Part shown: positions 6,237-39,613 of the stretch, one piece after another
How positions within the stretch are numbered: position 1 is the first letter of the stretch
How the letters are laid out: the number at the start of each line of letters is the position of its first letter
Assembly: GCA_051294905.1 (NCBI GenBank)
Contig: CM119371.1
Span: 40,364,001-40,428,000 of the forward strand
Direction of reading: 5' to 3'
Length of the DNA: 64,000 nt
From: Botryllus schlosseri
Lineage: Eukaryota
The notes under the pieces: generated by a model
What the model was told of the DNA's origin: nothing
The model's input: the letters and a program-made list of their open reading frames with translations, nothing else
The model's database searches: none
Program-made: the position numbers and the translations under genes

Positions 6237-6353
6237 TGGATTATTTGGATTTACCTTTAGTACATACCGCGAATGTGGATTATTTGGATTTACCTTTAGT
6301 ACATCCCGCGAATGTGGATTATTTGGATTTACCTTTAGTACATCCCGCGAATG
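6237..6353 (+). repeat. 39-bp tandem repeat, 3 copies
   Basis: Unit TGGATTATTTGGATTTACCTTTAGTACATCCCGCGAATG, with one substitution in copy 1. Confidence 0.95.
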
Positions 6354-8020: not shown

Positions 8021-8619
8021 GAACCAATGGCGATTCGCGAGCGATCTATATAACTACTGGTGTGGGCGAGGCGTGACTTATTACTATGCGAATCGCATAA
8101 ACCCGACATCAACTTCGGGCAGCATGTCTAATGTCACGTCTAACGTCAACATTTGATCTAAGCAAATCTGTTTGGCGTCGACATCAGACGCTGTTCACGA
8201 ATCAATCGCGTCTAAACATCGTTGGAATATTGCCAGATCGCATATGTACCTGTTGGGATGTTTCCGTGCGGGCCGTTCCGATTTTTGATTGGGTAGAATC
8301 GCATGTGTGTTTGGTTTGTAAATAGCATCGCGTAATTTGCGTAATATGTGTAAGTCTGACGTATTGTAACTCAATGTGTGGACTCACCCCACTTGATTTC
8401 GACGATGTTGTCAGTAATACTTAGTAGAAAAGTCACCATTTCTGATTGAGCTAACTACTTCGTTACAGCTTAATATTAACTTACTTTAATTGGCGTAAAT
8501 ATTTGTTATGCTCCGTACAGTATACACATTTTTTGTGGTTTTGTGGTTTTGTAGTTTTCGTTAGCATTTTACTCTTAGTAGCAATATCCCAATTCATGCT
8601 ATATATACATTGTATATAA

Positions 8620-8775
8620 TGCCGGTGACGTCATTGTTGGTCATACGATTGTTGATTTACAATGTTCTTTCCAATTCTCTACTGGTGTTTGACGATTACC
8701 CGAAACCTTCGGATTTGTTTCAATATGAATATATTATTCAGTTACATATTGAATTTCTGTACCTCCAAGAAACTC
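8620..8775 (+). mobile_element. Diverged solo fragment of the Penelope pLTR
   Basis: Matches ~39548-39718 (ggtgacgtca...ttctttccaattctctact...tttcaatatgaata...ctgtacctccaagaa). Confidence 0.75.
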
Positions 8776-10077
8776 TTCAAGTTGATATCATTTCTATATT
8801 ATTATGTACGGATGCAGTAGCAGTAATTAGTCATCGGCTACCTCTACATATCTCGTAGATATATGACCAGTGGATTGTACAATTTACATATAGGACATTC
8901 CAGCAGACTGACCTGACAATACACTTCGCCTAACGCTGTACGAAATATGCGGTGTCTGGCCAATATATTCGTGTCTATCAGTCACACGCGGCATTCATAA
9001 CATGCGTCAATCCCGTTCACAGCAACTGAAACGCCTACTTGCGATGCGAAAAGATGTCTTCAAATACAATATTGTTGTGTCATGACTAGCGTCTGCAGGT
9101 AATATTTCCTGGTTCAAACATACGGGATATCTCACTTCGAGTGCAGTTAAATTGCCGCATCACGTCGCTTTGAAATCGAATGACAGATTCCTCGCAAATA
9201 GGTAATGAACCCGGATAATTGAGCTATCAATAAAACTCGATAACTTTGCAGTAAAATTAGTATGCTGTAGCTTAAAGTTCCTTCGTCGAAAGGATCTGTT
9301 TGGTGTTCAGTTCAATGCTAATATGACATATATCAAATGGACGAGGATTGAGAAACCGCTCGGCCTGATCATTTCAACGCACGCAATTGATATCAACATG
9401 TATAAATATGCTACCACCACAAGCTTTGGTAACGCCGAAGTGTACGGGAACGGGTAATTTACCGTTAATTTATTGATCAATCTGTTTGGGTGAGGTCGAT
9501 GTGAATAGAAATCGGTAATTTGATGAAGCAAGCCGCTGCATCAAGTCGACCGAAATTCTGGCAGTATACGTCAAATGATACCACTGCTGAATCTCTGTTC
9601 TCAAATGGAACCAACAAGTTTTGCCTTCCAAGTTATAAAGCTCGAATCTAGTTATCTCTATTGAAAGGATAGTAGCCTATGTTTACCAAGGTCATTGTAT
9701 TTACGCCAGTAGTGTAGTTGGGTTCGTTTCGTGCAGGCCAATCAAATTACGCCACGTCGCCCTAATTGCCATGCCTACATTGCCACATCATCCGCCCATT
9801 GCCGCACCTATAGCACACCCATTGCCACATCATCAGCAATTGTGAATTTCAATACCGATTTTCCATGTGTATTTAGCAATATGTATTGATTAACTTGAAA
9901 TGTATCATCACTAATTAATTAATATAAAATGCGATTTTGAGCGCTGCGACTTGATAATATTAATCCCTACGCTTCTGATGAATGATTTTATGTGATAAGG
10001 ACCTTGGTAACATTCAGATTCTGCAACGATTGTTTGGATATACATTTTAGCAATACCCCACTAAACTATAGGTGGTT

Positions 10078-11422
10078 ATATTACTCTATTGGCCGGAGAT
10101 AACTCATCCGTCCATATTTTTGAACTTGATTTTATGTGTACAAGTTACGGTTTCTGCGGTCTCCACATTTTACGACTTATTTTGATTAGACGCAGGTAAG
10201 CGATTCTCAAGTTCGGAGCTATGGAAACAAATCAGTCGCATGTGCTCGTTCCGAACTCGCAACAGCTTAGTAGCATATACGCGAATCCCAAGGCGAAAAT
10301 AATCGAAAGAACTATAGCCGCCGGCGCGCGATTCTCAGGGCTGTAATTATACAAACACTTTATCTGCATATACGCGAACCCCAGCGTTATAACGACAGGG
10401 ACTAATTAGCGCGTTCTGAAGCCGTAAATTTAGTCAACTTCAATGAGATAGTCATGATTTAAAGATGGTAATATCTCTTAATGACTTTAATACTCTGTAT
10501 TTTAAATTATCCACACCTATGAGTCGAAATGTTGTTAAGTAACAAATGTTTTCAACATGACCTAAACGCAAAGTGCACGAATTTTCATGTTGATCAAATA
10601 CCACAAACTTTGCTTGCTTTCAGAGTTAGTAACGAAGCGCATAACAGTATTTACCCAAAAATAAATATTGAGAAATGGCATCATCACTAATTAATTAATG
10701 TTCATTTATTTCGAAAAAATCGCAATCTATACAGACAGACGCATACACTTTGCTGCATCTGAAGTAGAATTTCAGCGTCGGTATTTGTTATAAGCCGAGA
10801 AATGTACCTTCGCGCAATTTTTACAAGTAGTCGCACATACTTTGCTGCATCTGAAGTGGAATTCCAGCGTCGTTGTTTGCTATAAGCCGGGAAATTAGAG
10901 TCGACGCTTCGCGCAATTTTGACAGGTAGTCTCACACAATGTGGTTTTATATGATGATATATCAAAATAATACACATCATCACTAATTACTTAATATAAA
11001 ATGCGGCAGCTATATTACTCTATTGGTCAGAGATAACTCATCCATCCATATTTTAAACTTGATTTTATGTATACAAGTTACGGTCTCTGCAACCTCCACA
11101 TTGTACGACTTATTTTCATTAGACGCGGGCAAGCGATTCTCAAGTTCGGAGCTACGGAAACAAATCACTAGTATGTGCGCGTTCCGAATAGTCTTGTATA
11201 ATTTTCTAAAGTCGTAGCAGCTCAGTAGCATATACGCGAATCCCAAGCGAAAATAATCGAACGAACTATAGCCGCAGGCGTGCGATTCGCGGGACTTTAA
11301 TTATACAAACACTTCGGATGCCTGTACGCGAACCCCAGCGTTATAACGATTAGATCTAATTAGCGCGTTCTGAAGCCGTAAATTTAGTCAACATCATTGA
11401 GATAACCCTGATTTAAAGATGA
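10078..11422 (+). repeat. Diverged direct duplication within the arm (~10078-10470 vs ~11012-11422)
   Basis: Both copies read tattactctattgg...gataactcatcc...gcgattctcaagttcggagcta...gcgcgttctgaagccgtaaatttagtcaac. Confidence 0.85.
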
Positions 11423-12304
11423 TGACCGAGTGTGACAATAGCACTCGTCAAGGTTATACTAACATACCCTTAAACTACTCTCTACTTCACAAAATATAAA
11501 GTTAACGATTCCTAACTCGCAGTTACGAAGCAAAAGTCGATATTGCTTTGTGATGATTTTGATGTTGTTCCATACCGATCGGGAAGATAGCACACCTAAT
11601 TTCGTAACTAACTACATAATCCCTAGTAACGTAGTAAGACGCATAACGGAATTTACGCAAAATCGGTATTGCTCTGCGATAATTTTGATCACTATGTTTT
11701 GATAATGACTTGCTTCCGAGAAATAAATCACATTCATTATACGTTAGATGATACTTTTCCTTGATATTCTATCATGTGTATTTAGGACTAATGCGACATC
11801 ACTATGTTTGCGGCAGATCTGATTTGAACACACTAATTTTGCGTATCACACCACAAACTGCGCAAGCCTTCAAAGTTGATAAGTAAACAAGTATTTGCAC
11901 TCCATCAGAATACTAAAGTAGCTTTTCGCGTATATGTACCTAATACTAAAGTGTTTATGATTTCAAATTGCTTCAACTTCATGACATTTTCAGTATTAAA
12001 CAGAAATATAGACCTAGAATACTAACTTTTATTCGTAAATAGCTACTTCCTATACCTTAATTTAATGGATTTATCTGAGATCATTCCTTTACTTAATCTC
12101 TCCAAAATGTGCATTATACAAGTACGTCACCATCGAAACCCTCTCGCTATAACTATCTGGCAGTATAATTGCATTTATGACATTACGGCAATGTACCATG
12201 TCAAATTTTGTTACGCATTTCATGATTAAACAACTTTAAAACCAACGTAGTTCTATACCGACATTTGCGTGAATCTGTTTTGCGGGAGCGTAGCACATAC
12301 CTAA

Positions 12305-13170
12305 TCGTATGAATTTGTAAACTACTTATTCATGACATAGTAATAATTCTACTTGTGTACTTTTTCATATTTTGCAGCAATTTTAGTAGTACTTAAATAA
12401 AATTCGAAATATAAACTAATCGAAAAATTCGGTAACCAATTTCGCATAGGCTATGCATACAAATGAGGAAAGTTACATCAACGCGTGTTAACTAATTGAA
12501 TTATGTAGCTTGTAATTCATGCAAGTTTCGAAACTTCTACACTGAATCCTTTAAAGTAGATAGAATCGAAAAAACTAATCGAAAATATTCACGAAGTTTG
12601 GATGCGACATATTTGGGTTTTTTAAAATCATTCATACCCATGATTCGAAATACTTTAACTAACTTATGTTTTCGACATAAGATAAGCGTGAAATCTACAA
12701 ATTTCTATGTTGCGCGAATACCACAAACTTTGCTTGCTTTCAGAGCCGGCAACTAAATGCAAGACAGAATTTACGCAAAAGTTGCTATTCTGAAAATTTT
12801 GTCAAGGTAATAGTTTATAAACTTACACTTGAGCACTACGAAATGTTCAAGTACTTTATCTTTACACGACGTTTTTGTAAAATGAATACTAATATTATTG
12901 AAAAAATAAAAAATAAAAAGAGCGAAAAATTACATTTTATATCGGAACGCAACAAGAAAAATCGTATGAATTTGTAAACTACTTATTCATGACATAATAA
13001 TAATTCTACTTGTACACTTTTTCACACTTTATAACACTTTAAGTAGTACTTAACAGTTTCAGTTTTAAATAAAATACGGAATATAAACTAATCGAAAAAT
13101 TCGGTTACCAATTTCGCGTAGGCCATGCATACAAATGAGGAAAGTTACATCAACGCGCGTTAACTAGTTG
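12305..13170 (+). repeat. Direct duplication within the arm (~12305-12500 vs ~12961-13170)
   Basis: Both read atcgtatgaatttgtaaactacttattcatgacat...gcatacaaatgaggaaagttacatcaacgcg. Confidence 0.85.
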
Positions 13171-13252
13171 TATCGAGTTATCGAATGATTTTTTCCTTAC
13201 ATCAAAACAACTAGAACGTGAAACTACATTAAAAACGTATCTAAATGAGCTC

Positions 13253-14000
13253 CAGGGCATTGTGATTATGCAGCATACCAAATTTCATCAACCATTTCAT
13301 GATGGAACAACTTTAAAACTAACGCAGTTCTATAGCAACTTTTGCCTAAATCTGTTTTCGGTAGCGTATACATATACATAGTCAGCTTTAATAACAGAAT
13401 TACCAAGCTAATATGTGACTCCTCACCTTGCAACTTGGTACGTAGTTGTAGGACATTGTGATTATGTAGCATACCAAATTTCCTCACGCATTTCACAATG
13501 GAACAACTTTAAAACTAACGCGGCTCTACATCGACTTTTTGCGTACATCTGTTTTGCGGGAGCGTATAGAACATACCTATACATAGTCAACTTTAATAAC
13601 GGAATTACCATGCTTAACATTGAATCCCAACTCTAAACTTGATACGTAGTTGTAGGGCATTATGGCAATGCACCATGCTAAATTTCATCATACATCTAAT
13701 GATGGAACACCTTTGAAACTATCGCAGTCGAATATCGACTTTTACACAGATCTGTTTTTCGTGAACATAGCATATACCCATACATAGTCAATTTTAATAA
13801 CAGAATTAGCATGCTAAACCTTAAATTCTCACCTTGAACGTTGGTACCCAGTTGTAGGACATAATAACAATGCACCATACCAAATTTCGTCAGGCATTTC
13901 ATGATGTAACACTTTCAAAACCAACGCAGTTCTATACAGGCTTTTGGCTAAATCTGTTTTTCCGTAGCGTAGCACGTACCTATACATAGTCAACTTTAAT
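13253..14000 (+). repeat. Diverged tandem array of ~200-bp units (about 3.7 copies) inside the left arm; mirrored at ~20700-21447
   Basis: Recurring cataccaaatttc...gaacaactttaaaactaacgcagttcta...catagtcaactttaataac with a period of ~200 bp. A further diverged unit lies at ~12130-12305. Confidence 0.85.
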
Positions 14001-16459
14001 ATCAATACATGTTTATCGTAAGTCCTACACAGTCACGATATCCGGCCGAGTTTGACTTTTAGAAAACATTATACCGACATCGCGACATCTTACAAAATTG
14101 AAACCGCGGTGACTGCTTGAGAGACCTACCAGTGATATCGCGGTAATCTAGTTACTTCCACAAAATAGTATGTATTCAACTTACTTTCCACAAATCTAAC
14201 GCGCAAAACAATTTACTTTGCTAACGAAAAGTGCTGAGTCATCATATCATTATCCGCGCAACAATACACCTAAAACATACTATCGTACAAAATGGTCGCT
14301 AACCTCTTTGTGCACCAGCTGTAAATCTCACAAGCAACAAGTTTCAAGATTCCAGTTATTGAAAAAATGTTAAAGTGTTTCTCCTGCGCCAAGTCGTTAT
14401 GTTGACGAAAGCGTATATTGTAATATCATGATCGATTTGCATTCGTTGGTCACAAACTGTCACTACTCTAAATAATTATTTTTCACTCAAACACAACAGC
14501 ATACTTGTCGCCATTCGTTTTCATCAAGCACGAGTTCAATAAACTTACTTACTACGACATGAATTGGTATTTTTATGTTGTGTAAATAGGTAATAATTAA
14601 TTTTAGTAACACTATACCAACATCATCGAGTTGTGCGAATAGATTTACATGTGGTGTTATGGTTTTAATCGAAGTACACTGCACGATCTAATGTAGAGTC
14701 ATCTCTATTGTATAGCAACTCGGTAATCGAAATGCATGCATTAACATTTAAACAGCGATCGTGTTTCATCACGCGAAAAATATGTTCACTACTGCGATAC
14801 TCTGCACAGGGCATGCAAATCCTTTTCACACTCGTAATAGTATACCAACGGCTACCGCCGACAACGTTTAACAATACCAACGACACTAAACATACGATAC
14901 CTACCCAATCTGGAAATTGTTTCGATTTATTCTGTCCGTTTCAATTTAAGATAAGGAAGCCCATTTCACTCAATGTATCGATGCCTACGGTACTCTACAA
15001 AATTTTCTGATTAATTCTCCCTATGCATATTTATCACAAGAAAGATGATTTGACACCTAAAGTACGAAATACTTTTTTCGCTTGAGCTAAGCCGCAGCGC
15101 CTGGAGTGGAATTTTACGGGGTATGTGGACTCATTTCGTAGGGCTCTATGCCATAGGAGCATACTTTACGCTCCAATTCGATTCCCACACATTCCATATA
15201 ATTACTAACAGAACCATTGAGTACCAGCCTTGACATTTTCCGTAGTACTAGATGGCATGTATACAATTTCACGACATCCGACATTACGACGAAGACTATC
15301 AAAATATCGAAAGAAGCCCTCTATTCTTTTCTGAAATAATCAAGGTTTTATCAGGACTTCCCTTCATATAAACTCTAGCAGAATCACTAATAACCTCTCA
15401 AGTGTACTCAATTTACTTTAATTTGATACTCGTGTACCAAATCGCTATTTTCCGCAAGTATGATAGAGGCTATCGCTCGATACTCAACGATTCGTAATTT
15501 TGCTGGAATACAAGTACAATTAGTTTAAAGTAGTTTGAGGTTACGTTTGTATCACCTTGACAAGTGCTATTATCAAAAAATGCTTTTGCTAAACTCTTAC
15601 ACTTTCACTAAACTTCTACACTGAATCTTGTAAAGTAGATAGAAAAGGAAAACTATTAACATAAGGTAAGTGAGAAGCACGCAAATGTCGATTGCATACA
15701 AATGCCACAAACTGCGCTAACTTCCAGAGTTGTTAAGTATAGAAGTACTCGTACGTCTTGAGAATACCCAAGTAGGTTTTTTGCCTACATGTACCAAATA
15801 CTCTCAAGTCCTTATGATATTGGAGTACATCAACTTCATGATAGCTACAGTATTAAACAGAAATAGACCTAGAGTACTAACGTTTTTGTGCAGTGAGAGT
15901 TCGCAAATTATCGAAGTATTTTTGTTATTTTTATTGCGATAAGTCATTCTGCTGCGCAAAAATGCGTCGTAGGATATAGATGAAACTAGCACCACTCATC
16001 AAGACCGCTGATAACAGTACATTTCAACATTTAGTTGCAGTAAATTTCGAGTAAAGTACAAGAAGTGATGATTTCCGAGTGAGTTAAAAAGTAAGTATTG
16101 CAGGTATAGTTTACCTGAAAACCTAATACTCTGAAATAGAAGTAGATGCAGTGTAAATAGTTAATCACTTGATTAAGTATAGCGCAAGCAGATAAAACCT
16201 ATACTTGAGTACTACAAAATACACGAGTACTTCGCTATCGACTCCCTCCACGTAATAAGTGACTACGGTTTAAGACTGCTTTTACCGATACTCGTCAGTT
16301 TCCGTTTTAGATAGAATTCGGAAACCAAATAATTTCATAAACATAAGCTAATTAAATGAATTTATTCGAATGTACTATGCCGCGCCGATAAGATTAATTA
16401 TAATATACTTATCATGTTAGAGCGATTTTTCTAGCGTAGAAAATCTTTAAAATGTAGTA

Positions 16460-17276
16460 TTAGTACTAGGTGGTAGGGTAGGAAGTGTTAGGTTTAGGAG
16501 CGCGCGGGAATGTTTTTTATGCTTATACAACTCAATGAATACCCATCGGCCTGCTTACTACATTTTAAAGATTCTCTCCACTATTGTGTATACAAGAATA
16601 TACTTCTCTTAGTAAGCAATTTCTCGTGAATTCCGAAGCACATTGACGTGTGTTAACTTCTGTATTAGGTGATAGTATCATTTTCATGTCTGATAATGAT
16701 ACTTGTCAAGGTGATACAAACGTAAGCTCAAACTACTTTAAAATTTAAAGTCTCACCAAATTTTATCTAAAACTGTCAAGTACCGATAAAGTAGTCTAAA
16801 CCCTAGTCGCTTTTTACGTGGAGGGAGTACTTGTATATTTTGGAGTACTCAAGTATAGGTTTGGCCTGCTTGCGCTATACTAAATGAAGTGATTGACTAT
16901 TTGCACTGCATCTACTTCTATTTCAGAGTTTTCGAGCAAACTATACCTTCAATACTTACTTTTTAACTCACTCGGAAATCATGACTTCTTGTACTTTAGT
17001 AGGACTTTACTGTTACTAAAATGTTGAAATGTACTTTTTGTCAGTGGGCCAGTGGTCTTGGTGAGTGGTGTCAGTTTCATCTATATCCAACGAAAAGCTA
17101 CTTGAGTACTTTGCGGGTTCGTATCATCGCAAATAATATATTCTAAACATGTTTAGATAGTGAGGAGTGAAAGGGACAAATTTTATCTAAAACTGAAACT
17201 GTAAAGTACCGATAAAGTAGTCTAGAGTATTTTTTATGTTTATTCAGCTCAACGAATATCTTCATATTGGCCTGCT
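16460..17276. repeat. 817-bp central spacer, a mosaic of diverged copies of inner-arm sequence
   Basis: ~16815-17090 resembles ~17480-17770; ~16697-16745 resembles ~18170-18215; ~16510-16580 resembles ~17225-17300. Confidence 0.8.
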
Positions 17277-20200
17277 TACTACATTTTAAAGATTTTCTAC
17301 GCTAGAAAAATCGCTCTAACATGATAAGTATATTATAATTAATCTTATCGGCGCGGCATAGTACATTCGAATAAATTCATTTAATTAGCTTATGTTTATG
17401 AAATTATTTGGTTTCCGAATTCTATCTAAAACGGAAACTGACGAGTATCGGTAAAAGCAGTCTTAAACCGTAGTCACTTATTACGTGGAGGGAGTCGATA
17501 GCGAAGTACTCGTGTATTTTGTAGTACTCAAGTATAGGTTTTATCTGCTTGCGCTATACTTAATCAAGTGATTAACTATTTACACTGCATCTACTTCTAT
17601 TTCAGAGTATTCGGTTTTCAGGTAAACTATACCTGCAATACTTACTTTTTAACTCACTCGGAAATCATCACTTCTTGTACTTTACTCGAAATTTACTGCA
17701 ACTAAATGTTGAAATGTACTGTTATCAGCGGTCTTGATGAGTGGTGCTAGTTTCATCTATATCCTACGACGCATTTTTGCGCAGCAGAATGACTTATCGC
17801 AATAAAAATAACAAAAATACTTCGATAATTTGCGAACTCTCACTGCACAAAAACGTTAGTACTCTAGGTCTATTTCTGTTTAATACTGTAGCTATCATGA
17901 AGTTGATGTACTCCAATATCATAAGGACTTGAGAGTATTTGGTACATGTAGGCAAAAAACCTACTTGGGTATTCTCAAGACGTACGAGTACTTCTATACT
18001 TAACAACTCTGGAAGTTAGCGCAGTTTGTGGCATTTGTATGCAATCGACATTTGCGTGCTTCTCACTTACCTTATGTTAATAGTTTTCCTTTTCTATCTA
18101 CTTTACAAGATTCAGTGTAGAAGTTTAGTGAAAGTGTAAGAGTTTAGCAAAAGCATTTTTTGATAATAGCACTTGTCAAGGTGATACAAACGTAACCTCA
18201 AACTACTTTAAACTAATTGTACTTGTATTCCAGCAAAATTACGAATCGTTGAGTATCGAGCGATAGCCTCTATCATACTTGCGGAAAATAGCGATTTGGT
18301 ACACGAGTATCAAATTAGAGTAAATTGAGTACACTTGAGAGGTTATTAGTGATTCTGCTAGAGTTTATATGAAGGGAAGTCCTGATAAAACCTTGATTAT
18401 TTCAGAAAAGAATAGAGGGCTTCTTTCGATATTTTGATAGTCTTCGTCGTAATGTCGGATGTCGTGAAATTGTATACATGCCATCTAGTACTACGGAAAA
18501 TGTCAAGGCTGGTACTCAATGGTTCTGTTAGTAATTATATGGAATGTGTGGGAATCGAATTGGAGCGTAAAGTATGCTCCTATGGCATAGAGCCCTACGA
18601 AATGAGTCCACATACCCCGTAAAATTCCCCTCCAGGCGCTGCGGCTTAGCTCAAGCGAAAAAAGTATTTCGTACTTTAGGTGTCAAATCATCTTTCTTGT
18701 GATAAATATGCATAGGGAGAATTAATCAGAAAATTTTGTAGAGTACCGTAGGCATCGATACATTGAGTGAAATGGGCTTCCTTATCTTAAATTGAAACGG
18801 ACAGAATAAATCGAAACAATTTCCAGATTGGGTAGGTATCGTATGTTTAGTGTCGTTGGTATTGTTAAACGTTGTCGGTGGTAGCCGTTGGTATACTATT
18901 ACGAGTGTGAAAAGGATTTGCATGCCCTGTGCAGAGTATCGCAGTAGTGAACATATTTTTCGCGTGATGAAACACGATCGCTGTTTAAATGTTAATGCAT
19001 GCATTTCGATTACCGAGTTGCTATACAATAGAGATGACTCTACATTAGATCGTGCAGTGTACTTCGATTAAAACCATAACACCACATGTAAATCTATTCG
19101 CACAACTCGATGATGTTGGTATAGTGTTACTAAAATTAATTATTACCTATTTACACAACATAAAAATACCAATTCATGTCGTAGTAAGTAAGTTTATTGA
19201 ACTCGTGCTTGATGAAAACGAATGGCGACAAGTATGCTGTTGTGTTTGAGTGAAAAATAATTATTTAGAGTAGTGACAGTTTGTGACCAACGAATGCAAA
19301 TCGATCATGATATTACAATATACGCTTTCGTCAACATAACGACTTGGCGCAGGAGAAACACTTTAACATTTTTTCAATAACTGGAATCTTGAAACTTGTT
19401 GCTTGTGAGATTTACAGCTGGTGCACAAAGAGGTTAGCGACCATTTTGTACGATAGTATGTTTTAGGTGTATTGTTGCGCGGATAATGATATGATGACTC
19501 AGCACTTTTCGTTAGCAAAGTAAATTGTTTTGCGCGTTAGATTTGTGGAAAGTAAGTTGAATACATACTATTTTGTGGAAGTAACTAGATTACCGCGATA
19601 TCACTGGTAGGTCTCTCAAGCAGTCACCGCGGTTTCAATTTTGTAAGATGTCGCGATGTCGGTATAATGTTTTCTAAAAGTCAAACTCGGCCGGATATCG
19701 TGACTGTGTAGGACTTACGATAAACATGTAGGGGAGATGTGGTACCGATGGATCACTGGGACCGAAAATACTTTGAAAATTCTCTATGGTAATTCCATGA
19801 TTACACTCCGTGAACTTGTCTACAATTGCATGCTGGCAACATCTTTCCTCACATACAAAAAAATTCGACGTGCGGGAACTATGGGGTCTCTCACAGATGT
19901 TTTTTGTTTTGGGGGGTGTAAACTAAATTTAGATCGACATATACATTTTTCTTTGTAACCTTCAACACGAACAAACCAGCAATCATTTTTATTGTGAAGT
20001 CTAGGGCTTGTATCAGGCTATATAATGGAACCTATTATTTTTTTCATTACTTTCCTTGAGTGGAATTTTTTTCGATTCATGTACAAAATTAGTAGGGTGG
20101 GGACCGATGATACAATAGCCAAATCAAGCAAAATAATCAAGCATACTAATCATGAAACAAATGAAACATGACTACGTACAGAAAATCTTTATGTAATAAT

Positions 20201-23200
20201 TGCATATGATGTTTTATCGCTATAACGAGATCTTTGGAAGTCACACTGTCGATTTGCGGGCAATATGTATGTAGCCCCAAATTTATAAGTCCGAGCCTAA
20301 ATCGAAACGTGATTTTATGACAACATTTGAGTCAATATTTAATCTATTTTTTGACGGTTGCGACCGAAAATTCTTCTTTGGCTTGCTGTAGCTTGGATTA
20401 TAATACTGAGCAAGAAAAGTTGTCACATCTGAGTTTTTTAGGGTATATGTGTCATAGGTCCCTGGGTCGTGTGCCATTGGACCCACCGGGTGGGGACCGA
20501 TGACACGTTCGAGCAACAAATTTTAAACGTCCATAAATATTTTTTGAAAAGACTGATAATCATGTATATGTGCGCGATAGGTAGAGCTTGTATGAAAGTG
20601 CTGAGCCAGCAAAAGATCTGCTGTTTTCGGCTGAACAGTTTGGGGCCAGCGATAATTTTCCAATTTTTGATCCATCGGTACCACATCTCCCCTATTGATA
20701 TTAAAGTTGACTATGTATAGGTACGTGCTACGCTACGGAAAAACAGATTTAGCCAAAAGCCTGTATAGAACTGCGTTGGTTTTGAAAGTGTTACATCATG
20801 AAATGCCTGACGAAATTTGGTATGGTGCATTGTTATTATGTCCTACAACTGGGTACCAACGTTCAAGGTGAGAATTTAAGGTTTAGCATGCTAATTCTGT
20901 TATTAAAATTGACTATGTATGGGTATATGCTATGTTCACGAAAAACAGATCTGTGTAAAAGTCGATATTCGACTGCGATAGTTTCAAAGGTGTTCCATCA
21001 TTAGATGTATGATGAAATTTAGCATGGTGCATTGCCATAATGCCCTACAACTACGTATCAAGTTTAGAGTTGGGATTCAATGTTAAGCATGGTAATTCCG
21101 TTATTAAAGTTGACTATGTATAGGTATGTTCTATACGCTCCCGCAAAACAGATGTACGCAAAAAGTCGATGTAGAGCCGCGTTAGTTTTAAAGTTGTTCC
21201 ATTGTGAAATGCGTGAGGAAATTTGGTATGCTACATAATCACAATGTCCTACAACTACGTACCAAGTTGCAAGGTGAGGAGTCACATATTAGCTTGGTAA
21301 TTCTGTTATTAAAGCTGACTATGTATATGTATACGCTACCGAAAACAGATTTAGGCAAAAGTTGCTATAGAACTGCGTTAGTTTTAAAGTTGTTCCATCA
21401 TGAAATGGTTGATGAAATTTGGTATGCTGCATAATCACAATGCCCTGGGGCTCATTTAGATACGTTTTTAATGTAGTTTCACGTTCTAGTTGTTTTGATG
21501 TAAGGAAAAAATCATTCGATAACTCGATACAACTAGTTAACGCGCGTTGATGTAACTTTCCTCATTTGTATGCATGGCCTACGCGAAATTGGTAACCGAA
21601 TTTTTCGATTAGTTTATATTCCGTATTTTATTTAAAACTGAAACTGTTAAGTACTACTTAAAGTGTTATAAAGTGTGAAAAAGTGTACAAGTAGAATTAT
21701 TATTATGTCATGAATAAGTAGTTTACAAATTCATACGATTTTTCTTGTTGCGTTCCGATATAAAATGTAATTTTTCGCTCTTTTTATTTTTTATTTTTTC
21801 AATAATATTAGTATTCATTTTACAAAAACGTCGTGTAAAGATAAAGTACTTGAACATTTCGTAGTGCTCAAGTGTAAGTTTATAAACTATTACCTTGACA
21901 AAATTTTCAGAATAGCAACTTTTGCGTAAATTCTGTCTTGCATTTAGTTGCCGGCTCTGAAAGCAAGCAAAGTTTGTGGTATTCGCGCAACATAGAAATT
22001 TGTAGATTTCACGCTTATCTTATGTCGAAAACATAAGTTAGTTAAAGTATTTCGAATCATGGGTATGAATGATTTTAAAAAACCCAAATATGTCGCATCC
22101 AAACTTCGTGAATATTTTCGATTAGTTTTTTCGATTCTATCTACTTTAAAGGATTCAGTGTAGAAGTTTCGAAACTTGCATGAATTACAAGCTACATAAT
22201 TCAATTAGTTAACACGCGTTGATGTAACTTTCCTCATTTGTATGCATAGCCTATGCGAAATTGGTTACCGAATTTTTCGATTAGTTTATATTCCGAATTT
22301 TATTTAAGTACTACTAAAATTGCTGCAAAATATGAAAAAGTACACAAGTAGAATTATTACTATGTCATGAATAAGTAGTTTACAAATTCATACGATTAGG
22401 TATGTGCTACGCTCCCGCAAAACAGATTCACGCAAATGTCGGTATAGAACTACGTTGGTTTTAAAGTTGTTTAATCATGAAATGCGTAACAAAATTTGAC
22501 ATGGTACATTGCCGTAATGTCATAAATGCAATTATACTGCCAGATAGTTATAGCGAGAGGGTTTCGATGGTGACGTACTTGTATAATGCACATTTTGGAG
22601 AGATTAAGTAAAGGAATGATCTCAGATAAATCCATTAAATTAAGGTATAGGAAGTAGCTATTTACGAATAAAAGTTAGTATTCTAGGTCTATATTTCTGT
22701 TTAATACTGAAAATGTCATGAAGTTGAAGCAATTTGAAATCATAAACACTTTAGTATTAGGTACATATACGCGAAAAGCTACTTTAGTATTCTGATGGAG
22801 TGCAAATACTTGTTTACTTATCAACTTTGAAGGCTTGCGCAGTTTGTGGTGTGATACGCAAAATTAGTGTGTTCAAATCAGATCTGCCGCAAACATAGTG
22901 ATGTCGCATTAGTCCTAAATACACATGATAGAATATCAAGGAAAAGTATCATCTAACGTATAATGAATGTGATTTATTTCTCGGAAGCAAGTCATTATCA
23001 AAACATAGTGATCAAAATTATCGCAGAGCAATACCGATTTTGCGTAAATTCCGTTATGCGTCTTACTACGTTACTAGGGATTATGTAGTTAGTTACGAAA
23101 TTAGGTGTGCTATCTTCCCGATCGGTATGGAACAACATCAAAATCATCACAAAGCAATATCGACTTTTGCTTCGTAACTGCGAGTTAGGAATCGTTAACT

Positions 23201-24992
23201 TTATATTTTGTGAAGTAGAGAGTAGTTTAAGGGTATGTTAGTATAACCTTGACGAGTGCTATTGTCACACTCGGTCATCATCTTTAAATCAGGGTTATCT
23301 CAATGATGTTGACTAAATTTACGGCTTCAGAACGCGCTAATTAGATCTAATCGTTATAACGCTGGGGTTCGCGTACAGGCATCCGAAGTGTTTGTATAAT
23401 TAAAGTCCCGCGAATCGCACGCCTGCGGCTATAGTTCGTTCGATTATTTTCGCTTGGGATTCGCGTATATGCTACTGAGCTGCTACGACTTTAGAAAATT
23501 ATACAAGACTATTCGGAACGCGCACATACTAGTGATTTGTTTCCGTAGCTCCGAACTTGAGAATCGCTTGCCCGCGTCTAATGAAAATAAGTCGTACAAT
23601 GTGGAGGTTGCTGAGACCGTAACTTGTATACATAAAATCAAGTTTAAAATATGGATGGATGAGTTATCTCTGACCAATAGAGTAATATAGCTGCCGCATT
23701 TTATATTAAGTAATTAGTGATGATGTGTATTATTTTGATATATCATCATATAAAACCACATTGTGTGAGACTACCTGTCAAAATTGCGCGAAGCGTCGAC
23801 TCTAATTTCCCGGCTTATAGCAAACAACGACGCTGGAATTCCACTTCAGATGCAGCAAAGTATGTGCGACTACTTGTAAAAATTGCGCGAAGGTACATTT
23901 CTCGGCTTATAACAAATACCGACGCTGAAATTCTACTTCAGATGCAGCAAAGTGTATGCGTCTGTCTGTATAGATTGCGATTTTTTCGAAATAAATGAAC
24001 ATTAATTAATTAGTGATGATGCCATTTCTCAATATTTATTTTTGGGTAAATACTGTTATGCGCTTCGTTACTAACTCTGAAAGCAAGCAAAGTTTGTGGT
24101 ATTTGATCAACATGAAAATTCGTGCACTTTGCGTTTAGGTCATGTTGAAAACATTTGTTACTTAACAACATTTCGACTCATAGGTGTGGATAATTTAAAA
24201 TACAGAGTATTAAAGTCATTAAGAGATATTACCATCTTTAAATCATGACTATCTCATTGAAGTTGACTAAATTTACGGCTTCAGAACGCGCTAATTAGTC
24301 CCTGTCGTTATAACGCTGGGGTTCGCGTATATGCAGATAAAGTGTTTGTATAATTACAGCCCTGAGCATCGCGCGCCGGCGGCTATAGTTCTTTCGATTA
24401 TTTTCGCCTTGGGATTCGCGTATATGCTACTAAGCTGTTGCGAGTTCGGAACGAGCACATGCGACTGATTTGTTTCCATAGCTCCGAACTTGAGAATCGC
24501 TTACCTGCGTCTAATCAAAATAAGTCGTAAAATGTGGAGACCGCAGAAACCGTAACTTGTACACATAAAATCAAGTTCAAAAATATGGACGGATGACTTA
24601 TCTCCGGCCAATAGAGTAATATAACCACCTATAGTTTAGTGGGGTATTGCTAAAATGTATATCCAAACAATCGTTGCAGAATCTGAATGTTACCAAGGTC
24701 CTTATCACATAAAATCATTCATCAGAAGCGTAGGGATTAATATTATCAAGTCGCAGCGCTCAAAATCGCATTTTATATTAATTAATTAGTGATGATACAT
24801 TTCAAGTTAATCAATACATATTGCTAAATACACATGGAAAATCGGTATTGAAATTCACAATTGCTGATGATGTGGCAATGGGTGTGCTATAGGTGCGGCA
24901 ATGGGCGGATGATGTGGCAATGTAGGCGTGGCAATTAGGGCGACGTGGCGTAATTTGATTGGCCTGCACGAAACGAACCCAACTACACTACT
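17277..24992 (-). repeat. Right arm of giant inverted repeat (6,752 bp plus 964-bp insertion)
   Basis: Mirror of 9708-16459, interrupted by the MITE at 19731-20692 plus a duplicated TA. Confidence 0.97.
19731..20692. mobile_element. 962-bp MITE with perfect 25-bp TIRs and TA target duplication (Tc1/mariner/pogo-like by TSD)
   Basis: TIR GGGGAGATGTGGTACCGATGGATCA at 19731-19755 and its reverse complement at 20668-20692. TA on both sides. The empty site (single TA) is visible in the opposite arm at 14006-14007. Confidence 0.93.
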
Positions 24993-26575
24993 TACGCCCT
25001 AGCGTAACGATGACTTCTGATCGCGTACCAGGAGAAATACCTCAACTATAGTTCATAGAGAGGATAAAAAATGACGTAATCTATAGAAGGGCTTAGGCAG
25101 GCCCGCTGTATTTCTCATAGTCGTTATTGTAAAATGATAACTATGGCTGACTTATAACAGCTGGTTCGCAGTGAAGGAAGACGTTGTGAAGTTGCGTTAT
25201 TGGAGGTCATCTGATTACTTGGGATACACATCATATGTTTATCGTAATAGTGGAGAAAGTCGGTACCTTGACTCATGCGTGACTCTATATTGAATACGAT
25301 CACTTATACGGGGAAATATTCAGGTATCTTGCTCAAGCTATGGATATGAATACTTGAGATAAAGCGATACAGACGCTTTCATCGTAATCATCATAATAAT
25401 TATTATCATATGTTTCGATTCCAGATACTTCAAGACTTGCAATACAGTTAATAAAAAGGAAGGAACAGAAGCGACTTTGCGAAGTCAATCAATCAAACTC
25501 ATTTCTTAGCCTACAAATATATAGTTAGCAATCGGATAAAAAAAACGTGATAAAGGAGGCATACACGCCATAGTCTAGTTTTAGTGAGAAATATCATTCA
25601 GAATTCCAGGTCAACAATGATGAGACAGTTTACAGAATAGTGTACAGGCGAAGTCGCTGTGTCAAGATCAATTCGACAATCTCAATACGCACCCTATATT
25701 AATCCAATAAAATGGGCATGCATTTAGACTTCAAGGTGGTCATGGTCATTGGTCATACTTTGAAAGCTCTACTATCGAACCGAAGACGATACCACGATGA
25801 GGACGCAGGGGCTTGTACACATGTGCGTTAGATTTCATAGTATTGAAGGTGTCAAATTCAGCGGACAGATACATCGATTGAAAGAATACATGAACTAGCA
25901 ATTTCTAGCTACCTCGTTTCTTTATTATTCAAGGCTCGATTTGATCGAAAAGAATCTCACAGAACTAACTTACGTTATATTAGTCGAATAACTAAATTCG
26001 ATATACGTATTTACAGGTGATATAGTCACTTTCGTTTAATCGTGTTTGTGCGTTTGGTTGCTACTACTGCGCCAACATTGGGTTTGGCTGTGAATAGCTG
26101 GCGCTTTCGCGTGTGTCAGCAGTCTCCGAGCGAACGTATTAGATCGTTATGCTATTCCCCCTCAGTTTTCTCTATTCAGTTTATTGTGTGTTATGAACTT
26201 GGGGTATATAAATGTCGTACGATGGGGGGGTATTCTTCAAGGAATCCGCTGTAGCGTAAGCATACTGATTGGATTACATGAGCGTGAGTGAGCTTGGGCA
26301 TCCTGTAATGAATGATTGTCAGATCGAATTTATATCAAACAATGCAAGTTGCCTAATGCCTACATGAGAGGCCCTTGATTATAGGGTAAATGGCTATCCC
26401 ATTTGTCTTGAAAATAACTTGACAGTAGATAGTTATGCAGTTAGACAGTTCTGCAGGCAATAATGTGTTGATTATAGGTTGCAAGGTCAATTTGATTTTG
26501 ATGCTATAGCAACATGACATGTTTTGTTCAGATAATACTACTACTTAACAGTTTCTTTGATATTACGAACTGACG

Positions 26576-28214
26576 ATGTCGGGGAAGCAGTCGGTTCCGG
26601 AGCTGCAAATTTCGCAGACAATAAAAAAGCATCTTCAGAGATCACGTTTCAGTGGGAAGTACGCAGATTTCAAAATCATAGTCGGCAGCAAAGTGTTCCC
26701 AACTCACCGCTTTATTCTCGGAAACAAGTCGGCGTTTTTCCGTGACCTGATTCACAATAACGCGAATAAAGACACCCCAGAATCGTGCGATCATTCGGAA
26801 TACTCAGCAGATGCTGTCGGCGTATGCTTAGAATACATTTACACCGATCGACTCGAATTCGAGTCTCACAACGCGCCAGCTGTTTTGCGCGTCGCGCATC
26901 ACTGGACTTTGCGTCTTGTTGTCACAAAGTGCGAGCAATTGCTGAAGACTAGCATTACATCATCAAACTGTATAAAAACAAGGGCGCTGGCTACGAAACT
27001 TGGCCTTGCGGATCTCGGGGAGTGCGCTAACAAGGTTATTCTCGGGAATTTTGAAATGGTGACCAAAGCTAAAGATCTAATAATTTTAGCAGTTGATGAT
27101 ATGAAGTCCATTAAAGATACTGCTATGGAAAGAGCATCAGTACGCATTAAAGACTTATGGACTCTATTTTACACATGGCACAAACGAAAAATTAAGGCTG
27201 GACCTCACACCTTATGCGAATGCTTGTATATATTCCCGTTCGACCAATTTACAGTCACCGGTTTCAAAGAGCAGATATGGAAAAACGAACACGTGTCGAG
27301 CTGTGACCAGTGTCAGGAAGTCGCGGTACGCGCGTTCCTGAGTACATTTGGCGAACCACGTAAAGACGACGACGTTTTATTCCTTAAAAAGCTCGCGAAG
27401 AAATACGATTTTCGTACGTTGAACGAAATTACGCGCAGACACATTGTAGAGAACCATTTATTTATATTCACAAATCACGGCATGGGTGAGCTCGATAACG
27501 ATGATTTGATGGAGTGCATTAATGATATCGAGGACATGTGCAGTGTGCACGCCCGGCGAGTTTACGGCGATCGTGAAATGGATGATAAAATCAGAAAAGC
27601 GACAAGAAATTTTCCCGCAAATATTTAAATGCGTGGAGGATCCTACCTGCGCGCCGCACAACTTGTTTCTGTCCAGTATTGGCGGATTTTTTGGTCTTTC
27701 CGAACCCACCGCGGCAGAAGTAGCATCTTCTACTTCAAGTGAGCAATATTGGTGGCCGAAATACTGCCTTTTCCTCAAAACGCTAGCGGGAAAATACGAC
27801 TGTAGCGTTACAGAGAAATTCGTGGATCAATGCATAGCCGGGGGTTTTGCCGAGGTCTGTGAAGACGTCGGTTTTTTAGAACTAAGCGCTTCTGACTTGA
27901 TAACTTATTTGTCGTCGAAGTCTACGTATAGCTGTCGCGAAAGCCAGATTTGGGGGGCGATCATGTGCTGGATTCGTCATCACGAGTCGAGACGGGAGTC
28001 GTTTCAAGCTATCTTCGATTCTCTAAAGCTAGAAGAATTTACGACCGGTTTCCTGAGGTCGAACATATTAATCAACGCGTTAGTGATGGAGTCCAAAGCG
28101 AGTGTTTTCTCCGTGATGAGGGAGATTCTGCGAAGATTAGAACTATTGGAAAGCGAACACGCGGAAATGAAGAAAAACCTTCGCAACAAAAGCAATCGGA
28201 AACACACGAAATGA
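26576..28214 (+). pseudogene. Intronless BTB/POZ + repeated BACK-like (kelch-like N-terminal type) gene with one frameshift near 27540-27560; no kelch propeller seen
   Basis: BTB motifs ADFKIIVGSKVFPTHRFILGNKSAFF and CLEYIYT. BACK-like motifs NCIKTRALA...ILGNFEMV and FLELSASDLITYLSS...ESQIWGAIMCWIRHHESRR. ORFs 26576-27628 and 27522-28214 overlap in different frames, and the second carries the FTAIVKW continuation. Confidence 0.85.
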
Positions 28215-30769: not shown

Positions 30770-33700
30770 CAGTGACGTGCGGTCCAATGAGGCAGGGGAG
30801 GCAGTGCCTCACCTGTCGTTAGAGTGAGTGAGTGAAATTATGAAAACCCTCGATTATTATTGATATTTCCGTCGATGTTCATAAATAATTAAATCTGAAC
30901 ATTTTTTCACCCAACATCATCAATTTGCCTCATTATTATTCAAAAATACAGCGCGAAAGGAGAGGTGAGGCACGGGTGAGGCACGGGCGGGTCGTGCCTC
31001 ACTTGGAACAATGCAATTTATCATAAATAGCTCGGAATTCATAATAATTGGTATCAATAAAATGCTATCGTCGCACTGATTCCGAAAATCCAAATATTAG
31101 CAGTGTCAGAGCACCAGAACCCCCAAAAAATCGCCAAAGAAGCTGACAGTCGGCTTTATTACAGACAATGCCAAAGCAGAAAAACAATGGCCAGAGGAGG
31201 CACAAACGAATCTAGCTCATGCACTATTCGCTAACAATCGGACAATTGCAGCAAAGTGAAACGCTCTATCGATTTCGGAATCCAACAGTCTCTGTAGGAA
31301 TTGCATAGTAGCGACGACAAATATATATGTTATGTATTTTCCATCCATAGATACGTTAAATTGTGGTATGTGATAGCTACTAGCATGGCCTATTGTCGTT
31401 TTTTTTTGTGGCCTTTATGCTGTGTTCAAATTCAATAGCTGTATAACCTTAAATTATGATATGTGATTGATGTACTTACATAGCCTGCGTTGTCGTTGTT
31501 TGTGGTCGTTTATAGTGTTTTCCTTTCGACTGCAATAGTTATTTACACCAGGTCGATTCTAATGACATCTCTATCCCCAATCATGAATATCACCCTGATT
31601 TGTCACAGGCTGGCTGATGTCTAATCATTTAGGTGTGATAATAGTGAGTGACATATTTAGTTTTGCTGATCAAATACAGAACCGAAGTGATTAAACAGCG
31701 CGCTTGGGGCTCCCAAAATGGAAGAGGATTATATATCCAAGCTTCGGGATTTCTCAAAACTGGAGTTTCGCGCAAAAATAGAAGTGATCGGCAACGGAAG
31801 ACCAACGCCGCAACTAAAAGGTTTGCTTCAAAATATGGGAAAGAAGAAAATGCGAACTTTTCAATCGGACTATGGTATACCCGAAAAGAATGGCTGTGTG
31901 GCTGCGCTTTAAAAAATCGTCTTTACTGCTTTCCCTGCCTTTTGTTTTCAACTTCTAACAATGTCTGGACTACCACGGGATATTGTGACTTGCAAATTTT
32001 GCCACGAAGCCTCAGCAGACATGAGAGATCGACAACTCATATTCAAAGCACGATTTCAGCAAAATATTTCGGAAATTCCAGGATCGATACGGCTGTGAAC
32101 GAACAGCGGAGACTCGATATTAGCATCCACAATGCAAAAGTAACGGAAAACCGAGATATTTTTAAAAGACCTGATTAATGCAACCTGCTTCTTAGGTAAA
32201 CAGGAGCTAGCATTTCGAGGCAACAATGAGAAGGCAAGCTCTACTATAATCGCGGCAATTATGTAGAACTGTTACATGCTTTTGCCGAGAAAGATGAAAG
32301 GTTGGCAAGACATTTGGAGACATCCAGTGTGTTTTCTGGCTTGTCAAATCGAACGCAGAACGATTTAATTGAGGCAGTCGGTGATGTAATTCGTAATGAT
32401 ATAAAAAGTGAGATTAATGCTGCCAAATTTGTCGCTGTAGAGGTAGACGAGACAACGGATGTCACAAATAAAGCACAGATCTCTGTTATTTTCCGCTATG
32501 TAGAAAAAAGGGGATTAGACTGTGAAGTCAAGGAGGCCTTTTTGGGATTTGATGACGTAAGTGAGGACAGACGAGCCTCTGCGGTAGCTTCGTATGTCTT
32601 GGGTGTATTGGAAAAATACAGCTGTGTCGAAAAGTTAGTAGCTCAGACATATGACGGGGCTGTTGTGATGGCATCAGAGCTTAATGGAGTGCAAGCTAAA
32701 ATTAAAGAAAAAGTACCAGAGGCCATGTTCACACACTGCTATGCACACAAGCTTAACCTTGTGCTCCAGCATTCAGCAAAATGTATGCCTGAGAGCAGAG
32801 CGTTTTTTAAAACACTTGAGGGACTAGGGTCATTATTTTAGCAAATCCTCGAAGCGCACCCGTTTATTGGATGAAGTTGTGAAACGGCGCTTACCAAGAG
32901 CAGCGTCCACAAGATGGAGTTCAAATTCCCGCCTGCTACAGACAACAAGCATGTACCAATCTGATCTGCGTGCCGTATTTCGCATCATTATTGAAAATCC
33001 TGACAATTGGGATAATGAAACTCAAATGATGGCCGCTGGATATTATCGTTGGCTGACAAAAGCATCAACATGCTTTTTAATTATGGCATATGAAGACGTA
33101 TTTGGTGAAACAGATGCGCTTTTTAGAGTGTTGCAAAACAAGGTCATGGACATTGGCTATTGTTGTGCGCGAATCCAGGACACCATCGAAGCTGTTGAAC
33201 GCATGAGAAGAGAGTTTAACATGATGTACCAGCGATTTGAACAGAAATGCAGTAGACATGAACTAACCGATAGCGGAAGAAATCAGTCGGTCAGAGATGA
33301 GAGAAAACGAATGTTCTACAGCAATCTGGATAACATCCTTGTTCAGATGAAAGCTAGGTTCGATCATTTTGGGGAGCTAGCTTTCCTCGGTTTGGTCGAC
33401 TGTACAAAATTTAATGAGATGTCACGACATTTTGATGACACCAAACTACAGAGCCTGTCAAAATATGCCAAGTTTTTTGACTTTGTTAGACTAAAGACTG
33501 ACCTCATCGGACTGTACAGCTCGCAAACAGTGAGGAATGAGTGCAAATCTCCAGGAGAGCTTCTGAGATTTTTAATCCAGAAAGATCTGCTTCAGACGGT
33601 TCCAGAGGCCACAAAGTTGCTCCAACTGGTGCTAACTGTTCCAGCTACTACAGCGTCAGTGGAAAGGTCTTTCTCTGCGTTAAAAAGACTCAAGACATAC

Positions 33701-34080
33701 AGTCGAAATAGGACCGATTCAGGGCGACTTTCCTCTTTGGCCCTCATCTCAATTGAGGCGAAGAGACTTTTGAAACTGAAGGAGAACAAGGAGGACTTTT
33801 ACAACGAAGTCACAAAAATTTTTGTGGCAAAGGATAGGCGCATGGACTTTATTTACAAATAATGTCCACAAACAGTGTCCGTTCCAATCCTTGAGACAAT
33901 GTAATACCGAAATTAAGTTCTTGAATAATATTTCTTGTGTTACTTTTCATACTTTTCGTTGGGTAATCTGTAATAAATCGATTAAAACTGAATATTTCAC
34001 GTGCGTGCGTGTTTATGTGTGTGGGGGGGGTCCGTGCCTCCCCAACCACGAACCTCACCCCACGAACCTCACCGCACGTC
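30770..34080 (+). mobile_element. hAT DNA transposon (ZMYM1-like/DUF4371 type), near full length, right TIR clipped
   Basis: Left end CAGTGACGTGCGGT at 30770. Right end ACCGCACGTC at 34071-34080 lacks the terminal ACTG. Subterminal GAGGCA/TGCCTC motifs; contains a transposase. Confidence 0.9.
31718..33862 (+). pseudogene. hAT transposase (TTF-type zinc finger, DUF4371, hAT C-terminal dimerisation domain) with about 4 frameshifts
   Basis: Motifs WLCG...LYCFPCLLF...HERSTTH, LAFRG, GNYVELL, VDETTDVTNKAQISVIFRYV, QTYDGA, HCYAHKLNLVL, TRW and PATTASVERSFSALKRLKTYSRN, spread over successive frames. Confidence 0.93.
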
Positions 34081-37701: not shown

Positions 37702-37745
37702 ACCCGAATATTTCCGGCTGACACTCGTCAGGGGTAATCGTCAGC
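37702..37745 (-). ncRNA. Second copy of the candidate hammerhead (variant ...CC-GGAAAUAUUC-GGGU)
   Basis: Reverse complement reads gctgacgattacccctgacgagtgtcagccggaaatattcgggt. Confidence 0.55.
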
Positions 37746-39171: not shown

Positions 39172-39613
39172 TGTGATTGTGGCTACGTGGGAAGAACGTC
39201 AAGACGTCTGCAGGACCGCATAAACCAACATGTCCCCAGATTTATCAGAACACGTGCGTCACGCGATGTGAAAAGCTCACCCTTAACTCATCCACTTAAG
39301 ATTGATGCTGATCGATCAAAGGCCATTAATTCTGCCATCGGCAAACATCTGTTGGATAATCCGATTTGTGCGAATAATTATCGAGACGACCGCTTTCGAA
39401 TCGTAGGTCGAGGTCGTTCACAATTCCATTTGTGTGCCTTGGAATCAACTTTTATCAAAATACACCAACCAAAACTCTGTCAACAAAAGGAGTTCGTGTA
39501 TCACCTAAAAATAGTACATTGAACGTTCTCTCATTCGAAATTTCATGCTGGTGACGTCATATTTTGTGATGCGATTGTTGATATACATTGTTCTTTCCAA
39601 TTCTCTACTAGTT

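Follow-up and report, generated by a model that had tools for sequence, protein, structure and literature searches.

The stretch of DNA analysed here (the window) comprises 64,000 nt of contig C1 (G000:C1:40364001-40428000) in an animal genome of 495.5 Mb and 219 contigs. Positions 9708-24992 of the window are occupied by a mobile element that is best explained (probability about 0.7) as a gene-less, slightly damaged member of a large palindromic, non-autonomous Polinton/Maverick satellite family, moved in trans. The window copy is an ordinary, decayed member of this family. A preliminary description of this DNA had taken the element for a non-autonomous Polinton-type element integrated as one piece. 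This was supported: the element has a 6-bp target-site duplication (TSD), the (AGT)2 end motif, an empty site, and a terminus in common with elements that carry integrase and capsid genes.

Structure and insertion of the window element

The features of the element and its borders are listed in window coordinates.

9702..9707: left copy of the TSD, TACGCC, which occurs once in the empty-site contig of sequencing run X5
9708..16459, plus strand: left arm, 6,752 bp, non-coding; 10 substitutions relative to the right arm; no open reading frame (ORF) with a family match
9708..9742, plus strand: terminal signature (AGTAGT, 24 variable bases, CCAAT), followed by four ATTGCC-type subterminal repeats to about 9830
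13254..14001, plus strand: tandem repeat, 202-bp unit, 3.7 copies; mirrored at 20699-21446 in the right arm
16460..17276: "spacer", 817 bp; loop and innermost right-arm segment, the left partner of which (~805 bp) is deleted
16460..16499: central loop of the family palindrome; the spacer starts exactly with this asymmetric loop of ~40 nt
17277..24992, minus strand: right arm, 6,752 bp and an insertion event of 964 bp
19731..20692: MITE (miniature inverted-repeat transposable element), 962 bp, confined to the right arm; has 25-nt inverted ends and a TA duplication
24993..24998: right copy of the TSD, TACGCC; single copy in the same X5 contig

Self-comparison of the window returned two pairs of inverted segments, 9708-14007/20693-24992 (4,300 nt) and 14006-16459/17277-19730 (2,454 nt). 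When these were compared without gaps over 6,754 positions, 6 + 4 = 10 substitutions and no indels were counted. The MITE is a later insertion, since it has its own inverted ends and TA duplication and is found in the right arm only. It also appears to be very abundant in the sequencing runs compared. With the 962-bp MITE and the TA duplication removed, the element measures 14,321 bp. It starts with AGTAGTGTAGT and finishes with ACTACACTACT, the complement of the start. The ends are thus AGTAGT and ACTACT (5'-AG...CT-3'), which is the (AGT)2//(ACT)2 motif of Maverick ends. The 202-bp tandem array is also present in other family members.

No coding capacity was recognized in the window copy. 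Its longest stop-to-stop frame has 113 aa, and none of the 29 frames of at least 55 aa in the left arm and spacer matched a Pfam family below E 0.05. No Rfam match was obtained in the element, nor any tblastn match to the proteins of a resident Polinton (lineage A, see below). Neither of the Polinton hallmarks PolB and retroviral-type (rve) integrase is therefore encoded by this copy. The arms and their substitutions, the 817-bp spacer, the terminal motifs, the TSD, the lack of a credible ORF and the MITE-free length had all been given in the preliminary description, and all were reproduced here; the lack of an ORF holds for the window copy.

TACGCC flanks the element on both sides. Logan contigs of four runs (X1, X5, X6, and X7), which are short, were compared with window positions 9200-25500. 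One 507-nt contig of X5, a run from a related organism under a different label, goes from 9491-9700 straight into 24992-25289 (210 and 297 letters on the two sides, 20 differences overall). It reads as the two flanks joined across a single TACGCC, the border bases being repeated. The window element is a real insertion of one unit with a 6-bp duplication, and the empty site, which the preliminary description had proposed to look for, exists in X5.

Polinton/Maverick elements were reportedly described by Kapitonov and Jurka in 2006. Mavericks have the (AGT)2 end motif with a 6-bp TSD (PMC8097293), and intact vertebrate Mavericks are 12.7-24.6 kb long with inverted repeats of 46-1,447 bp, mean 402 (PMC8097293, Barreat and Katzourakis 2021). 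Both the ends and the TSD of the window element agree with Maverick features given in three sources (PMC8097293, PMC10748475, PMC4196379). It is Polinton-like in its 6-bp TSD, (AGT)2//(ACT)2 ends, inverted termini, length within the range, and terminus in common with gene-bearing residents. It differs in that the window copy has no genes, that nearly the whole element is one palindrome, and that its inverted repeat of 6,752 bp is ~4.7 times the largest reported for Mavericks (1,447 bp), outside the usual ~0.05-1.5 kb. The window element is a non-autonomous derivative and not a Polinton proper.

A palindromic family across the genome

The terminal 300 bp of the window element gave at least 69 genome matches (40 of 775 candidates scored), with inverted pairs 10-34 kb apart. 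Ten elements were sampled from other matches, and nearly all were fold-backs; C3a, C3b, C1c, C2a, C2b, C5, C9, C10, and C11 are labels of such sampled family elements elsewhere in the genome. The start AGTAGT-N24-CCAAT was found in all ten elements with placeable ends, the window's included (the ends of C11 lie outside the sampled sequence). Perfect 6-bp TSDs, all different, flank eight of the ten (CACCAG, TATAGG, TATGTA, CATACC, GATGCT, ATGGTT, TACCCC, and the window's TACGCC), and in C9 and C5 five of six TSD positions match. Copies with different 6-bp TSDs, sought via the terminal sequence as the preliminary description had suggested, were thus found at other loci.

Genome-wide, the pattern AGTAGT-N24-CCAAT had 500 + 520 matches (1,020), compared with 105 + 112 (217) for the reversed control. 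This excess corresponds to about 400 elements above chance. On contig C1, 64 of 96 signature rows form 32 inverted pairs, as judged by inspection. The 32 unpaired rows, which include seven of an unrelated repeated 35-mer, were set aside, and pair #18 is doubtful, its ends being unlike. Pair lengths range from 5,204 to 34,258 bp (median 15,694), with 12 of the 32 pairs within 14.5-16.0 kb, and the pairs span ~1.3% of the contig.

The two ends of an element co-vary between elements: the terminal 35-mers are identical within 26 of the 32 C1 pairs, and only two pairs have a 35-mer in common with each other. Of the 11 elements examined, the window's among them, nine had arms 99.0-99.9% identical; the values were 98.3-99.2% in C5 and 95.8% in C11. 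Between elements, no match of at least 800 bp exceeded 99.1%, and identity between the arms of one element was mostly higher. The ends and arms within each element thus match each other far better than those of any other element. Transposition as a unit is seen in the TSD and empty site of the window copy and in the recurrence of the same architecture, with different TSDs and repeated internal spacings, at many loci. The preliminary description had the fold-back arise in the window unit by template switching, and this is contradicted: the fold-back architecture is inherited and common to a family of hundreds of copies.

CCAAT was observed at positions 31-35 in every member examined, and the preceding 24 bases differ freely from element to element. 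Because the motif was part of the search pattern, the evidence for its constancy comes from the 11 sequenced elements, the window's included. Adenovirus has auxiliary origin sites for host factors, and by analogy the CCAAT may be a host-factor site.

Complete members are whole palindromes around a loop of ~40 nt, and this is the ancestral form of the family. C3b (15,472 bp) and C1c (15,214 bp) align to their own reverse complements across the midpoint with 99.7-99.8% identity. In both, the 13-nt GC-rich stems CATTCCCGCGCGC and GCGCGCGGGAATG enclose an asymmetric central loop of ~40 nt. When the window copy was mapped onto C3b, the part of its spacer beyond the loop corresponded to the innermost arm segment, which is two-sided in C3b, and the window copy lacked ~805 bp on one side, the gap reaching the loop edge. 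Independent one-sided deletions abutting the loop were found in C10 (~1,044 bp), C2a (~311 bp), and C2b (~2,100 bp). In the 40 candidates scored, out of 703, no second instance of the junction at 16459/16460 was seen, and all other matches break there. The 817-bp spacer is a secondary, private, one-sided deletion beside a conserved loop. Long palindromes are unstable, and central asymmetric deletions stabilize them; the ~805-bp deletion most likely postdates insertion.

The arm is mosaic in structure, its modules being common to other members at 85-99% identity, and the nearest relative shifts by module. The terminal 1.5 kb of the window element is 98% like C10, and the inner 3.2 kb is 98.6% like C2b. 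In every case the module arrangement is mirrored in both arms, so that kilobase-scale swaps are always symmetric.

Gene-bearing relatives and the Bcl-2-like cargo

Polinton lineage A is represented by an element at C1:5.92 Mb (18,263 bp, 443-bp inverted ends, TSD GCCGAG), in which Pfam recognized PolB (PF03175, 32.6 bits), an integrase with rve and chromo domains, and an A32-like ATPase. The PF03175 profile search of the genome returned no match though PolB genes are present, which is a miss of the tool and not an absence. At least three divergent Polinton lineages were observed, with identities of the PolB fragment to the reference of ~92-100%, 66-76%, and 39-41%, and long open frames for PolB, integrase, and the capsid-position ORF are numerous in each. 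Within the window, the end of another Polinton-type inverted terminus lies at 7155-8059, finishing with ACTACT at 8059 and bearing subterminal tandem repeats like those of lineage A; no partner arm was found for it within window positions 1-9700.

A gene-bearing relative of the fold-backs is a 14,127-bp element on C8 (L055+L056, G000:C8:24814930-24829056), with a second copy of the same spacing at C8:25.65 Mb. Reading inward on one strand, it consists of a family-type terminus, 3.2 kb of non-coding sequence, a Bcl-2-like ORF, an integrase, and four morphogenesis ORFs. In its terminus CCAAT is correctly spaced, and ACTACT carries one substitution. The integrase is a 339-aa open frame placed by coordinates, and at two C8 loci an integrase of the 54% class sits 1.95 kb from the Bcl-2-like ORF. 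The four ORFs are collinear with the morphogenesis genes of lineage A (23-35% identical, E down to 1e-50). No PolB is present at the position where relatives carry one. The terminal 124 nt of the window element match the C8 terminus at 87.9% identity (E 5e-41); C2a matches it at 91%, and the lineage A terminus gave no match. The termini of the window element are thus in common with those of an element that encodes Polinton proteins, PolB being linked by coordinates only.

That link runs through a capsid-position ORF of 425 aa, which has at least 35 full-length open rows at 96-100% identity. Each of the four intact copies on C1 is enclosed by a signature pair (26,789, 17,666, 17,647, and 23,832 bp). 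At nine loci the ORF is 5.56 kb downstream of a PolB fragment in a 1,294-aa open frame (one frame is shorter), and at five of these nine PolB loci a match to the terminal 400 bp of the C8 element lies another 5-6 kb along (with 40 of 710 candidates scored). The C1 pairs #19 and #24, ~17.65 kb long, have the geometry of the PolB-bearing type, with no PolB among the scored rows there. The fold-back family thus has ends in common with a Polinton lineage whose PolB-bearing members measure ~17.65 kb, as judged from the geometry of these two pairs. The same lineage also has a PolB-less, Bcl-2-bearing form of 14.1 kb, and the modules in common suggest that the fold-back arms look like the Bcl-2 side of this form. 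The autonomous partner with the same termini that the preliminary description had proposed was therefore found in part: the C8 element provides the integrase and capsid modules, and PolB is connected to it by position.

The capsid-position ORF had no Pfam match and no match among solved structures, and a single-sequence fold of its 432-aa version (predicted local distance difference test score 31) was not used. A protein atlas points to double-jelly-roll-like clusters, and we treat a capsid identity of the 425/432-aa ORF as no more than a lead. At C1:20425964-20460221, a signature pair of 34.3 kb whose ends are identical contains a convergent Bcl-2 pair together with a 1,310-aa PolB frame and a capsid-position ORF belonging to another lineage; this is probably a fold-back with a Polinton nested inside it.

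Fuller family members carry one Mcl-1/Bcl-2-like ORF per arm, reading inward. In a few longer ORFs of other copies, Pfam recognized the Bcl-2 domain (PF00452, E 5e-22 to 2e-10), and the other longer ORFs of the sampled copies had no family match besides Bcl-2. The ORF is present in both arms of C3a and C3b and in C9, and is frameshifted in both arms of C10. Among solved structures, chains of Mcl-1 are closest (E 1.5e-11), and their NWGR and GGW motifs align with those of the ORF. Among 1.84 billion representatives, the nearest named protein is a "bcl-2-like protein 2" of the ascidian Styela clava (47% identity). A word-indexed protein search with the ORF gave no match; a HMMER search did find relatives. 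In the window no trace of the ORF was found (best tblastn E 0.35). The window copy has lost the Bcl-2-like gene, and "gene-less" is true of this copy only.

Genome-wide, 150 of 423 candidates for the Bcl-2-like ORF were scored, and 137 of the 150 had no stop (identities 74-100%). At least 50 convergent pairs with the plus-strand copy first were found by inspection of the scored matches, among which spacings recur: one of 5.58-5.60 kb is seen in at least nine pairs and one of ~3.2 kb in at least seven. The ratio of nonsynonymous to synonymous change between two subfamilies was ~0.5, on only 33 differences, which is too weak alone for a claim of selection. The C3b-type ORF (L043:5676-5850) stops early compared with the C3a copy (L037); ~146 nt past its stop lies an acceptor-like ...ttgttgcag, followed by sequence that encodes the C-terminal tail in C3a. 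The gap may be a short intron or an insertion. Tandem convergent pairs with identical spacing were seen at C10:21036694-21057670 (8,886 bp) and C9:13235353-13257112 (8,875 bp), suggesting tandem duplication of whole fold-backs.

A BCL-2 motif occurs in giant Gypsy-like elements of planarians (PMC6431247). Relatives of the window element resemble these and the viral Bcl-2 homologues as mobile or viral elements with a Bcl-2-family gene. They differ in that the carrier is a Polinton-derived palindrome with two copies per element, that the nearest named relative is of ascidian host type (47%), and that the gene is absent from the window copy. The open literature yielded neither a palindromic or fold-back Polinton satellite nor a Polinton/Maverick-borne Bcl-2 gene; Repbase, supplements, and subscription papers were outside this search.

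Elsewhere in the window, other repeats and gene fragments were observed:

26561..28214: BTB/BACK gene fragment pair
31648..33862: hAT-like transposase (DUF4371 and hAT dimerization domain)
37741..39198, minus strand: reverse transcriptase
45268..47988: reverse transcriptase ORF of 906 aa, of the long interspersed nuclear element type

Alternative explanations, replication model, and significance

The reading of the window element as a member of a trans-mobilized Polinton satellite family has several points against it. The filled site has no independent spanning read, as the X1, X6, and X7 contigs found there end at its borders. The genome searches scored part of each candidate list (38-150 of 237-1,035 candidates). 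Lengths are scattered over 5.2-34.3 kb, with nested insertions and deletions still included. Lineage A was rejected as the specific partner, since only its first 11 nt equal those of the window element and no other nucleotide or protein similarity was found. The link between PolB and the terminus consists of coordinates at five loci on other contigs and not of read sequence, and no PolB match fell inside the C1 signature pairs except in one probable nested insertion. Replication, extrachromosomal forms, packaging, and present-day activity lie beyond what the sequences here show. Finally, the arm identity could equally be maintained in place by arm-to-arm gene conversion.

Gene conversion is the main rival for the arm identity. 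On this explanation the element is an integrase-mobilized Polinton derivative that moves as plain double-stranded DNA, its arms being kept alike in place with no copy-back. Arms of 5-7.7 kb that lie 0.04-2 kb apart are good substrates for gene conversion, as is the case for large palindromes, and arm identity is high in nearly all copies. Yet the arms do drift, as C11 (95.8%) and C5 (98.3-99.2%, with a decayed TSD) indicate, and neither the MITE nor the 805-bp deletion of the window copy has been copied to the other arm or erased. Kilobase-scale module swaps that are always symmetric and terminal 35-mers that co-vary between elements also speak against it. We regard this explanation as unlikely overall, while giving it serious weight.

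Far less probable is that the window unit is a one-off snap-back, derived from a normal Polinton through template switching and integrated afterwards. It would account for a fold-back structure with Polinton ends, but this architecture recurs, with other TSDs, at dozens of loci; the loop is conserved, and certain inner spacings are found repeatedly, as in the nine or more Bcl-2 pairs 5.58-5.60 kb apart. We give similarly little credence to a fold-back transposon of another superfamily (Foldback (FB)/MuDR-like, Galileo/P, or IS3EU/GingerRoot). FB and Galileo elements have TSDs of 9 and 7 bp and partners with MuDR- or P-type transposases, whereas the TSD here is 6 bp and the partner found, with which the terminus is in common, has Polinton integrase and capsid modules. 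FB and Galileo elements of Drosophila have very long, internally repetitive inverted arms and are mostly non-autonomous (PMC3573991), which the present elements resemble; their arms are made of tandem subrepeats, whereas here a kilobase-scale unique palindrome is seen. IS3EU/GingerRoot elements do have a 6-bp TSD, but their termini are TA..TA, rarely TG..CA (PMC10045372), and the AG..CT termini of the window element rule them out. An assembly fold-back from a chimeric read, for which it can be said that no contig of X1, X6, or X7 spans the element, is very unlikely because of the 10 arm substitutions, the MITE and the deletion each confined to one arm, and the hundreds of similar elements in the genome; the precise TSD and the X5 empty site also argue against it.

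For the preferred reading, that of a trans-mobilized satellite family, the following mechanism is proposed. The integrase of a helper lineage would insert the element, giving the 6-bp TSD. The terminal-protein/PolB machinery of the helper would replicate it from the (AGT)2 ends, and the helper would probably supply the capsids. The displaced strand of the palindrome would snap back on itself, or the polymerase would copy back at the GC stem and loop. One arm would thereby be re-made from the other in each replication round, so that the arms would be near-identical at insertion and drift afterwards. Such re-copying would account for the near-identity of the arms as well as for the symmetry of the mosaics, and the arms of C11 and of C5, with its decayed TSD, fit drift after insertion. 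Template switching or copy-back would then be how the family replicates.

Packaging into a capsid with room for ~17.65 kb would keep the length near 15-16 kb, and the lengths do cluster at 83-91% of the 17.65-kb relative. The packaging-length idea of the preliminary description fits the modal family length of 14.6-16.0 kb, beside ~17.65 kb in pairs with the geometry of the PolB-bearing relatives, and the scatter of lengths tells against it. The fuller proposal, a satellite of an endogenous polintovirus that uses hairpin or copy-back synthesis on the protein-primed polymerase of the helper, has a capsid limit of ~15-16 kb, and carries two Mcl-1-like survival genes, is offered tentatively, as a possibility with the odds somewhat against it.

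Parallels exist in other systems. In copy-back or snap-back defective interfering genomes of RNA viruses, the polymerase turns around, the halves are complementary, the ends are identical, and the helper is out-replicated; these genomes differ in being RNA, non-integrating, and devoid of a cargo gene. Defective adenovirus genomes with inverted duplications were reportedly described by Daniell in 1976. According to PMC4189039, adenovirus vectors below ~75% of the genome length rearrange, 15-kb helper-dependent vectors are packaged as direct or inverted dimers, and the packageable range is ~75-105% of wild type. The likeness lies in protein-primed linear replicons and in gene-poor, helper-dependent genomes recovered as dimers. 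Unlike the present family, the adenovirus forms are products of the laboratory or of lytic infection and not integrated, inherited families, and a capsid limit for Polintons would here be an analogy.

The interest lies in the family rather than in the window copy. To our knowledge, the "self-synthesizing", protein-primed replication of Polintons/Mavericks is still only inferred from gene content, and we know of no experiment that has demonstrated their replication or packaging. The family bears on this model through several hundred helper-dependent palindromes with co-varying halves and always-symmetric mosaics, through lengths just under that of the PolB-bearing relative, and through a centre that is a conserved stem-loop. 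Such patterns are what snap-back or copy-back replication with size-limited packaging should produce, and they are testable by sequence analysis alone. For annotation, a palindromic family of this kind would escape protein-based Polinton searches. The family also represents a host-type Bcl-2/Mcl-1-like gene amplified to more than 100 open copies on a virus-like element. If the satellite reading is true, the family would be the first natural sequence-level read-out of Polinton replication and DNA packaging.

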